Shown: one piece after another, positions 11,402-12,170 of the stretch
Position numbering within the stretch: position 1 is the first letter of the stretch
Layout of the letters: the number at the start of each line of letters is the position of its first letter
Source of the DNA: a virus
Lineage: Duplodnaviria; Heunggongvirae; Uroviricota; Caudoviricetes
IMG/VR virus record: IMGVR_UViG_2850796239_000005
Location: 1-26,342 of that record
Reading direction: 5' to 3' (one strand)
Length of the DNA stretch: 26,342 bases
Made by a program: the position numbers and the translations under genes
The notes under the pieces: generated by a model
What the model saw: only the letters and a program-made list of their open reading frames with translations
What the model was told of the DNA's origin: nothing
The model's database searches: none

Positions 11402-11430
11402 TTGACAAAAACATCGCCTGTAACTATAAT
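11402..11430 (+). promoter_or_regulatory. Sigma70 promoter for hicAB with consensus -35 and -10
   Basis: TTGACA (11402-11407), 17-nt spacer, TATAAT (11425-11430), about 30 nt upstream of hicA. Imperfect palindrome AACTATAATTAGTT (11422-11435) overlaps the -10 and could be an antitoxin operator. Confidence 0.55.
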
Positions 11431-11465
11431 TAGTTGCAATGTAGCGAAGATGAGATTATGTGGGT

Positions 11466-11714
11466 ATGGGGAAAGCAGATAAGCTACTGGAAAAGTTTTT
11501 AAACAGTAAAAAAACGTTTGAATGGGATGAGTTGGTCGTTTTGTTTTCCTCTCTGGGATATGTCAAAAAGGAAATGCAGGGCTCAAGAGTGCGGTTTTTC
11601 AATGCTGAAATCAACCACACCATATTAATGCATCGCCCACATCCAGAAAGTTATATTAAAGGTGGAACGCTGAAAGCGATTAAACAGAATCTGAAAGAGG
11701 CTGGGGTATTATGA
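11466..11714 (+). CDS. hicA: HicA-family mRNA interferase toxin
   Basis: ...GYVKKEMQGSRVRFFNAEINHTILMHRPHPESYIKGGTLKAIKQNLKEAGVL fits the HicA pattern. Start is ATG 11466 or GTG 11460. Stop overlaps the hicB ATG (ATGA). Confidence 0.75.
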   Translation: MGKADKLLEKFLNSKKTFEWDELVVLFSSLGYVKKEMQGSRVRFFNAEINHTILMHRPHPESYIKGGTLKAIKQNLKEAGVL

Positions 11715-12055
11715 ATCATCTAAAATATAAAGGATATTTAGGTACAGTAGAACCAGATTTTGAAAATAATATCCTGTACGGAAAACTGGCGTTTATTCGA
11801 GACCTGGTAACTTATGAGGCTTCTACATTAGCTGAACTGGAACAGGAGTTTAAGACATCGGTTGAGCTGTATTTACAGTCTTGTGTGGAGGATGGAAAGG
11901 AGCCTGATACCCCGTTTAAAGGTGTGTTTAACGTCAGACTTGATCCAGAACTGCATCGTCGGGTCGCTGAAATGGCGATGGAAGAAGATTTATCACTGAA
12001 CGCCTTTGTTAATAAGGCGCTGGAAAAAGAAGTCAACCATCACACAGGGGCTTAA
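11711..12055 (+). CDS. hicB: HicB-family antitoxin with C-terminal ribbon-helix-helix DNA-binding region
   Basis: MNHLKYKGYLGTVEPDFENNILYGKLAFIRDLVTYEASTLAELEQEFKTSVELYLQSCVEDGKEP... plus C-terminal LHRRVAEMAMEEDLSLNAFVNKALEKEV. Toxin-first order typical of hicAB. Confidence 0.75.
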   Translation: MNHLKYKGYLGTVEPDFENNILYGKLAFIRDLVTYEASTLAELEQEFKTSVELYLQSCVEDGKEPDTPFKGVFNVRLDPELHRRVAEMAMEEDLSLNAFVNKALEKEVNHHTGA

Positions 12056-12146
12056 TGTTCCCTTCGTCTTTGACATCCTCACCGCCGAAGAATGGGGAAT
12101 TTACGGCGCACTGGTAAATGGTGGGGTGAGCAGGAGGCAAACAAAA

Positions 12147-12170
12147 CCGGCACCAAGGCCGGGTTTTGTT
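12147..12170. terminator. Candidate bidirectional intrinsic terminator between hicB and cI
   Basis: CCGGC-ACCAAG-GCCGG stem-loop with a plus-strand TTTTGTT tail and an upstream A-run (T-run on the minus strand). Confidence 0.45.

Follow-up and report, generated by a model that had tools for sequence, protein, structure and literature searches.

What does a small two-gene cassette do beside the cI repressor gene of a prophage, at a position where lambda carries rexAB? The question is raised by a 26,342-nucleotide stretch of caudoviricete DNA (IMG/VR record IMGVR_UViG_2850796239_000005; hereafter the window), in which an earlier note had read positions 11402-12170 as a hicA-hicB toxin-antitoxin module and a candidate defence determinant. 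Using profile searches, structure prediction and comparison with related prophages and plasmids, we find that the two genes form an intact HicA/HicB toxin-antitoxin pair. We consider it very probable that the cassette is a functional, autoregulated and self-contained type II toxin-antitoxin moron of the HicA^O B subfamily. This finding is correct but already known, and hence an annotation and not a discovery: plasmid-borne members of the subfamily were characterised earlier, and the phages mEp234 and HK106 were deposited with a hicAB in the rexAB position. The modest additions made here are a predicted operator consensus, the absence of the canonical histidine from a toxic clade, and the recognition that this position in Stx-type prophages is a hotspot for cargo.

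The gene pair and its control signals

The toxin gene hicA (11466-11714, plus strand) codes for 82 residues from an ATG, at which the RefSeq homologues also begin; an in-frame GTG lies at 11460. The antitoxin gene hicB (11711-12055, plus strand) codes for 114 residues that combine an N-terminal HicB fold with a putative C-terminal ribbon-helix-helix (RHH) domain, and the ATGA at 11711-11714 forms the 4-nt overlap of the two reading frames that had been described for this pair. Profile searches, which had been proposed as a check, place both products well above the curated Pfam gathering cut-offs: HicA recovers HicA_toxin (PF07927) with 45.1 bits (cut-off 27), its residues 20-81 spanning the entire 58-position model, and HicB recovers PF05534, the H. 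influenzae type, with 71 bits (cut-off 21). Likewise, full-length matches of the moron category were obtained in PHROGs for HicA (phrog_8887, 'toxin'; 9e-35) and HicB (phrog_9151, 'HicB-like antitoxin'; 1.5e-50), and the NCBIfam models gave no match to HicA. HicB shares 61% identity with its H. influenzae counterpart (Q9LA69), and the H. influenzae hic locus is the founding member of these systems. As the earlier note had recognised, the family is well known, and identical proteins already carry HicA and HicB family names in RefSeq (WP_000513533.1). Strong purifying selection acts on both genes, with dN/dS values of 0.03-0.06 at a dS of 0.25-0.57 between the prophage and plasmid copies.

The pair is preceded by a sigma-70 promoter (11402-11430, plus strand) with the -35 hexamer TTGACA at 11402-11407, a 17-nt spacer and the -10 hexamer TATAAT at 11425-11430. 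It had been described as a perfect consensus, and it indeed matches at 12 of 12 positions, the sole site to do so within 10500-13400. In a comparison of seven copies from prophages and plasmids neither hexamer changes, whereas the spacer between them varies. On the plus strand of hicAB (11430-12046) we found neither a terminator-like site nor a second promoter.

Overlapping the -10 hexamer is a palindrome (11419-11438) with the arms TGTAACT and AGTTGCA around a central ATAATT. The earlier note had proposed its inner part, 11422-11435, as a HicB site, and the conservation footprint supports this as a candidate operator while enlarging it to 20 bp: the block TGTAACTATAATTAGTTGCA (11419-11438) is invariant across seven prophage, IncX4 and IncI2 copies, whereas the promoter spacer and, beyond the equally invariant -35 hexamer, everything upstream diverge; the prophage of strain KY204 has a perfect palindrome (TGTAACT-N6-AGTTACA). 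The core AACT-N6-AGTT has three occurrences in the window where 0.37 would be expected, and both palindromes pointed out earlier are present. The second of these palindromes, AACTGATCGCAGTT (11157-11170), did not survive as a HicB site: exact copies of it are missing from all related loci, and of two hicAB carriers, strain 48 has only a degenerate version and 2015C-3121 none.

To see how far the first palindrome extends over the family, we compared the fetched loci of more distant homologues. A motif of the form G[CT]AACT-N6-7-AGTT[GA]C is found 29-75 nt 5' of hicA in the lineage of the window and in five further lineages whose HicA is 34-57% identical, namely the viral loci L023-L026 (with two copies in L026) and phage mEp234. 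Elsewhere in the 235 kb of fetched loci the motif is absent, with 0.11 occurrences expected by shuffling; two other loci, L021 and L022, hold only degenerate versions of it. Exact-pattern scans for the promoter and operator in 185,579 species-representative genomes returned no match. The RHH-type HicBs of Y. pestis (at its BS2 site) and B. pseudomallei bind palindromes that overlap the -10 element, as the operator predicted here also does, and the same review gives no operator for the H. influenzae-type HicB family (PMC11594946). From these sequence patterns we infer that HicB binds the -10 palindrome, and propose, as a modest novelty, a family-wide predicted operator consensus TGYAACT-N6-7-AGTTRCA over the -10 for H. 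influenzae-type HicB.

The cassette is closed on either side by an intrinsic terminator. Downstream, a hairpin at 12140-12170 (-15.8 kcal/mol on the plus and -14.1 kcal/mol on the minus strand), with U-runs following on both strands, ends hicAB on the plus strand and the cI-orf56 transcript on the minus strand, which bears out the earlier description of hicAB as convergent with a minus-strand cI and separated from it by a bidirectional terminator. Upstream, a Timm-like leftward terminator of the phage backbone (11291-11310, minus strand) consists of a hairpin followed by UUUUUCUUU (z = -3.8); it closes the cargo slot, and is kept in phage F039, which is without hicAB.

A cargo slot in the immunity region

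The repressor gene cI (12460-13179, minus strand) codes for a helix-turn-helix domain and an S24 peptidase (Pfam Peptidase_S24), and is split in the window by a 1-nt deletion. The run of C at 13041-13044 has four residues here and five in strain 48 and in the closely related locus L017, which has an intact C5 and is 99.9% identical over 4.5 kb with one mismatch and four single-base gaps. This pattern is typical of homopolymer sequencing error; we therefore do not interpret the frameshift as biology, and regard it as probably a sequencing error. Between the bidirectional terminator and cI lies a conserved 56-residue reading frame, orf56 (12169-12339, minus strand; phrog_28875, 1e-30), which had been missed in the first reading. 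It is 98-100% identical in 11 close IMG/VR loci and 8 genomes, absent in KY204, and accompanies hicAB across cI alleles, whereas the plasmids are without it. Given its position, hicAB is not the immediate neighbour of cI.

On the other side of the cassette the DNA is very AT-rich (GC 0.29 over 11125-11274), as had been noted. It had been taken to suggest a separately acquired cassette, and this part of the claim does not hold: the segment (11138-11282) follows the cI allele, being found in 9 of 9 loci with the same cI allele, among them that of phage F039, where hicAB is missing, and in none of the 6 loci in which the N-terminal DNA-binding half of cI is different. The hicAB genes are 99-100% identical in both groups. 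We therefore rejected the segment as a cassette boundary and, from its co-variation with cI, assign it to the immunity module. It is probably the left operator/promoter region, a designation as oL for which co-variation is the basis; a search for an operator motif common to oR (13180-13283) and this segment, using k-mers, mismatched 16-mers and palindromes, gave nothing convincing.

The earlier note had further placed the cassette in a slot equivalent to that of rexAB, between cI and the presumed pL/nutL side. The first half of this stands, in that hicAB lies between cI and the leftward terminator of the backbone, but neither an N gene nor a nutL site was found to its left. The left flank instead holds the isrK RNA (10725-10801), the C4 RNA (10613-10700) and a Rha/Ash antirepressor, so that the order leftward from cI is orf56, the bidirectional terminator, the inverted hicAB, the terminator at 11310-11291, the AT-rich segment, isrK, C4 and Rha/Ash. 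Part of this flank, 10766-11371, recurs at 95% identity in Stx2a Oslovirus phages without hicAB, and the best complete-genome match to the wider region 9000-17000 is mosaic, at 92-94% identity.

In complete E. coli genomes the cassette is found in prophages of eight chromosomes, always in the same slot; examples are a Stx1c prophage of strain 48 and prophages of 2015C-3121 and KY204. A further 11 IMG/VR contigs have a 99-100% identical HicA in the same position, and the identical slot is occupied beside two different cI alleles. Relatives hold other cargo there. Phage F039 has a type II restriction-modification (R-M) system and a two-gene pair, the KY204 homologue of which is annotated as Panacea-domain, and no hicAB; in 2015C-3121 hicAB is joined by a membrane protein and a protease of the SDH family, and in KY204 by the Panacea pair; and E2855 and 97-3250 have R-M genes of the Eco57I/BsuBI type. 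Thus, the segment from cI to the leftward terminator is a variable slot, positionally equivalent to that of rexAB. A published account of regulatory-region diversity in Stx phages (PMC8951638) leaves toxin-antitoxin cargo unmentioned.

The hicAB module is also a promiscuous moron: its distant homologues in other viral contigs (39-60% identity) lie near lysis genes, NinG or portal genes. Against the GenBank phage collection, the 829-bp cassette had no DNA match even at low stringency, and the relatives found there at the protein level are at most 43% identical. A published precedent for its position is phage mEp234, with HK106 (EF120460/EF120461, JQ182732, JQ086369). The mEp234 record (EF120460, lambda immunity) is annotated in the order cI - hicA - hicB - orf - Timm - oL/pL - N, so that in these phages too hicAB lies between cI and Timm, in the rexAB position. 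The proteins belong to the same two Pfam families, and they have the same operator motif (TGCAACT-N7-AGTTGCA). However, their HicA is only 34% identical to that of the window and their HicB has 152 residues; their hicAB is co-directional with cI, whereas here it is convergent and has its own consensus promoter; and their backbone is lambda-like with N/nutL, in contrast to the isrK/C4/Rha region and helicase-primase module found here. The likeness to lambda rexAB itself is one of position, both being cargo between cI and the leftward terminator/oL, in an accessory slot whose genes are expressed in the lysogen in lambda, and there is no relation in sequence or mechanism. The rexAB genes are co-transcribed with cI from pRM, while hicAB here is convergent and autonomous; and the exclusion phenotype of rex is proven, whereas for hicAB an exclusion role is only a candidate.

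Kinship with plasmid cassettes and possible roles

The closest relatives of the cassette are on plasmids. In Megablast searches all plasmid matches covered exactly 11400-12071 (plus strand) at about 90% nucleotide identity, which delimits a core common to IncX4 and IncI2 plasmids. In complete E. coli genomes 479 of the 505 matching places are on plasmids, and PLSDB yielded 792 plasmid records, 780 of them conjugative; replicon typing of the plasmids inspected assigned pCSZ4 to IncX4 and pFORC_081_2 to IncI2. Against the proteins of these two plasmids HicA is 96-99% and HicB 94-97% identical, and for the IncX4 copy compared the amino-acid identity is 94-96%, with HicA at 96%. The pair shows the hallmarks of the HicA^O B subfamily, with hicA first, overlapping reading frames and no intrinsic terminator between the genes, and it is like the copies of the IncX4 plasmids pJIE143, p14EC007a and pCSZ4 and of some IncI2 plasmids in its promoter hexamers, operator, 4-nt overlap and absence of an internal terminator. 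It differs from them in about 10% of its nucleotides, in a HicB one residue shorter at the C-terminus, in the sequence from the -35 outwards and in the downstream terminator, and in lying in a prophage immunity region, whereas the plasmid copies are next to transfer genes. The subfamily has been treated in the plasmid literature (PMC11878559; Bustamante & Iredell, as cited in PMC11594946). In particular, HicA^O of the IncX4 plasmid p14EC007a is toxic and HicB neutralises it fully, the hicA and hicB mRNAs being equally abundant (Lin et al. 2025, PMC11878559); toxicity is thus established for the p14EC007a proteins, and the IncX4 identities given above were computed against those of pCSZ4.

Most likely, the pair acts selfishly, by stabilising its carrier or helping it to compete. 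This may bring the carrier only a small benefit, as the effect of HicA^O B on competition between IncX4 plasmids is slight, at 3:1 after 80 generations (PMC11878559).

Given the near-identity to the IncX4/IncI2 copies, cross-neutralisation between prophage and plasmid is predicted, and cross-immunity to the plasmid copies is a likely corollary of the above role. In a stronger form, the cassette would serve mainly in cross-talk, each HicB neutralising the HicA of the other in the manner of an anti-addiction system and thereby altering the persistence and competition of mcr-1-type plasmids in lysogens. The identical operator, the closeness of both proteins and the predominance of plasmids among the E. 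coli matches all speak for this, as does the fact that hicAB of these plasmids works in plasmid-plasmid competition (PMC11878559). Yet the slightness of that competition effect weighs against it, and the dS between prophage and plasmid copies implies a long separate evolution. We regard this stronger form as a minority possibility, though the most serious of the alternatives.

Alternatively, the cassette could act primarily in abortive infection or superinfection exclusion, a role that the earlier note had called plausible. As a functional analogue of rexAB, it would free HicA when another infecting phage stops host transcription or drains HicB in some other way, and the infection would abort. 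Its neighbours by position lend this some appeal, since the slot holds R-M systems and Panacea-domain toxin-antitoxin pairs in relatives and rexAB in lambda; judged from its own promoter, the expression of hicAB would be independent of the phage lytic programme; and toxin-antitoxin systems in general can act in abortive infection (reviewed in PMC11594946). The evidence from HicAB systems themselves points the other way. Phage defence by HicAB is so far undemonstrated in any system (PMC11594946), and negative results on phage panels have been reported for HicAB2 of the P. putida prophage P1 (PMC12894663), the IncI2 HicA^T B (PMC11878559) and Adephagia gp90/91 (PMC11594946). Moreover, the IncI2 HicB is stable for 12 h in lysate (PMC11878559), which speaks against activation by antitoxin decay, and at E <= 0.01 none of the PADLOC-DB 2.0 families matched HicA, HicB, orf56 or the neighbouring proteins searched. 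A primary defence role is therefore unlikely, and abortive infection is better seen as a possible bonus of a pair that most likely serves the stabilisation or competition of its carrier.

Protein folds, the missing histidine and the proposed mechanism

Solved HicA and HicB structures are not close to the present proteins by sequence: phmmer against PDB gave no match for HicA and only weak RHH matches for HicB, and profile searches for solved structures reached E-values of about 0.2-0.4 at best. A comparison of folds was therefore needed. The AF2 model of HicA (pLDDT 90.4) has the dsRBD-like alpha-beta3-alpha core (helix 20-29, strands 32-36, 41-46 and 51-56, helix 66-79) with an additional N-terminal helix at residues 3-13. 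Foldseek ranks the HicA-like 1WHZ and two chains of B. pseudomallei HicA (BpsHicA; 6G26_E/F) as its top three matches in PDB, with probability 1.0 and target TM scores of 0.64-0.72. The HicB model (pLDDT 88) comprises an N-domain of the partial RNase H-like HicB fold, with five strands and a helix (40-60), followed by C-terminal helices at 79-91 and 96-112; its best matches are BpsHicB (6G26_A/B), TTHA0281 (2DSY) and the N-domain of BpsHicB (6G1C), with probabilities of 0.96-1.0 and E-values of 4e-3 to 0.3. Its residues 72-112 weakly resemble RHH proteins of the CopG/Arc type (CopG 9kkd, E 0.05-0.19; Arc-like PHROG, 1e-4). The pair thus shares its folds and toxin-first operon with the RHH-type systems of B. 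pseudomallei (6G26) and Y. pestis (HicAB3), differing from them in its low identity of 10-22%, in the extra HicA helix and in a residue of the presumed active site.

The residue in question is the histidine of the G-S-H motif, which is catalytic in BpsHicA (His24), YpHicA3 (His28) and EcHicA (His23), and which is required in the HicAs of Y. pestis, B. pseudomallei, E. coli, S. meliloti, S. pneumoniae and Adephagia (PMC11594946). In a profile alignment to 4C26, Arg41 of the present HicA aligns with His24 of BpsHicA, and mEp234, whose HicA is likewise of the long form with the N-terminal helix, has GSG at the same position. Across 17 HicA homologues, down to 38% identity, the motifs GSRVRF (Arg41 included) and HRPHP are invariant, and the latter offers His56 and His59 as candidate substitutes suggested by their conservation. 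The replacement of the histidine by Arg41 weakens the proposition that this toxin cleaves RNA like a canonical HicA and leaves the homology untouched. We found no literature report of RNase activity for the HicA^O B subfamily, and RNA cleavage is a putative activity of the Arg41 clade, by analogy with the family. It is highly improbable that Arg41 leaves HicA catalytically dead and that the pair persists for HicB alone, as a regulator or as an antitoxin decoy. Several HicAs do depend on this histidine for their toxicity (PMC11594946), but the invariance of GSRVRF and HRPHP, the low dN/dS of hicA and the HicB-rescued toxicity of the IncX4 member (PMC11878559) argue against such a loss. The long-form clade, toxic at least in that IncX4 member, thus has an arginine, or in mEp234 a glycine, for the histidine that is considered catalytic in all HicAs characterised so far.

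For the pair as a functional toxin-antitoxin moron we propose the following mechanism. The consensus promoter would drive a single short hicA-hicB mRNA that stops at the hairpin at 12140-12170. The N-terminal domain of HicB would neutralise HicA, and its C-terminal RHH would bind TGTAACT-N6-AGTTGCA over the -10; by occupying this palindrome, HicB would keep a very strong promoter low, and hence autoregulated. With terminators on both sides and an orientation against cI, expression in the lysogen would be independent of the phage switch. A falling supply of HicB would leave HicA free and arrest growth, by cleavage of mRNA if the family analogy holds. The cassette is best explained as a horizontally mobile unit, common also to the IncX4/IncI2 plasmids, that landed in the slot between cI and the leftward terminator in a backbone of Stx-type, Oslovirus-like prophages with a helicase/primase replication module.

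The slot of Stx-type prophages emerges as a cargo hotspot for R-M systems, the Panacea pair, a protease and HicAB, which makes it useful for the mining of defence genes. A bolder reading, which we hold to be rather doubtful, is that the prophage copy is cross-reactive with the HicA^O B of IncX4/IncI2 plasmids, or is the first phage-excluding HicAB, acting through a toxin that lacks the canonical histidine, or both. If it is cross-reactive, Stx-type lysogens would be immune to the toxin-based competition of such plasmids, and the plasmid would in turn neutralise the prophage toxin. Cross-neutralisation would then bear on how well colistin-resistance plasmids persist in STEC, and would connect the maintenance of mcr-1 plasmids with Shiga-toxin prophages.

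Antirepressor control and the state of cI

To the left of the cargo slot, the minus strand encodes a C4 antisense RNA (10613-10700; Rfam, 78.6 bits) and an isrK RNA (10725-10801; Rfam, 61.6 bits), a tandem pair lying 5' of an ORF for a Rha/Ash antirepressor (10181-10717; likely true start near 10561), with a candidate minus-strand promoter at 10836-10808 (10/12 match). This segment (10613-10801 and the ORF) is an antirepressor control module like the immI of P1/P7, and it stands at the position where lambda has N.

The AT-rich segment 11138-11282 (GC about 0.29) perfectly co-varies, across 15 related loci and independently of hicAB, with the N-terminal, DNA-binding half of the repressor cI. 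It is a candidate left operator/promoter region; a search for operator repeats common to oR (13180-13283) and this segment found none.

In cI itself (12460-13179, minus strand), a one-base deletion in the C-run at 13041-13044 yields 64-aa and 188-aa ORFs, the window having C4 as against C5 in the E. coli prophage of strain 48 and the close IMG/VR contig L017. Because L017 has C5 and is 99.9% identical over 4.5 kb, with 1 mismatch and 4 single-base gaps, this frameshift probably reflects a homopolymer sequencing error and not a dead repressor.

The HicA clade and the small ORF beside cI

Residue 41 of HicA (gene at 11466-11714) is arginine across the long-form HicA clade and glycine in the lambda-immunity phage mEp234, whereas characterised HicAs have the catalytic histidine at this position; His56 and His59 of the HRPHP motif are invariant. 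Toxicity has been reported for a plasmid HicA of the same subfamily despite this arginine (PMC11878559).

Downstream of cI lies a 56-aa ORF (12169-12339, minus strand; phrog_28875) whose match to ArgR-N-like proteins is weak (E 0.007). Conserved at 98-100%, it accompanies hicAB beside two different cI alleles; it is missing from the plasmids and the E. coli prophage of KY204, and tblastn against the GenBank phage collection gave 0 matches.

Apparent prophage decay and possible cargo exchange

The prophage looks rearranged and decayed. Four IS3-family elements (rve/HTH_Tnp_1) occur in the window (3417-4768, 5049-6258, 19976-21132 and 24539-25695), the set including an ALIL frameshift pseudoknot (5330-5446); the last two, which are inverted copies, flank a portal gene (21184-22728) and a 539-aa ORF. 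RecT (8383-9075) has 230 aa versus about 316 aa in relatives, and no Q/stx/lysis region lies between the replication genes and portal. Elsewhere, a minus-strand sRNA-Xcc1 match (1881-1964; Rfam, 78 bits) overlaps an antirepressor-like gene of the ORF6N/P22_AR_C type (1184-1966) at its 5' end; a second ORF6N paralogue lies at 2166-2948.

Many IncI2 plasmids align only to 11692-11952, the 5' half of hicB, at 88% identity. In such plasmids, among them pHZ004 (1406-1786 and 2633-3258), a HicB of the window type apparently sits, as a remnant or an orphan, beside the distinct HicA^T B pair.

A short junction sequence (GAAAAGCAGYGAACAG...) is common to the window (11357-11400) and the related loci L005 (about 4985-5030) and L003 (about 4590-4615). 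The cargo that follows it differs: the window, strain 48 and KY204 have hicAB there, and the relative phage F039 has the Panacea pair. Cargo exchange in the slot may use this sequence as a recombination joint.
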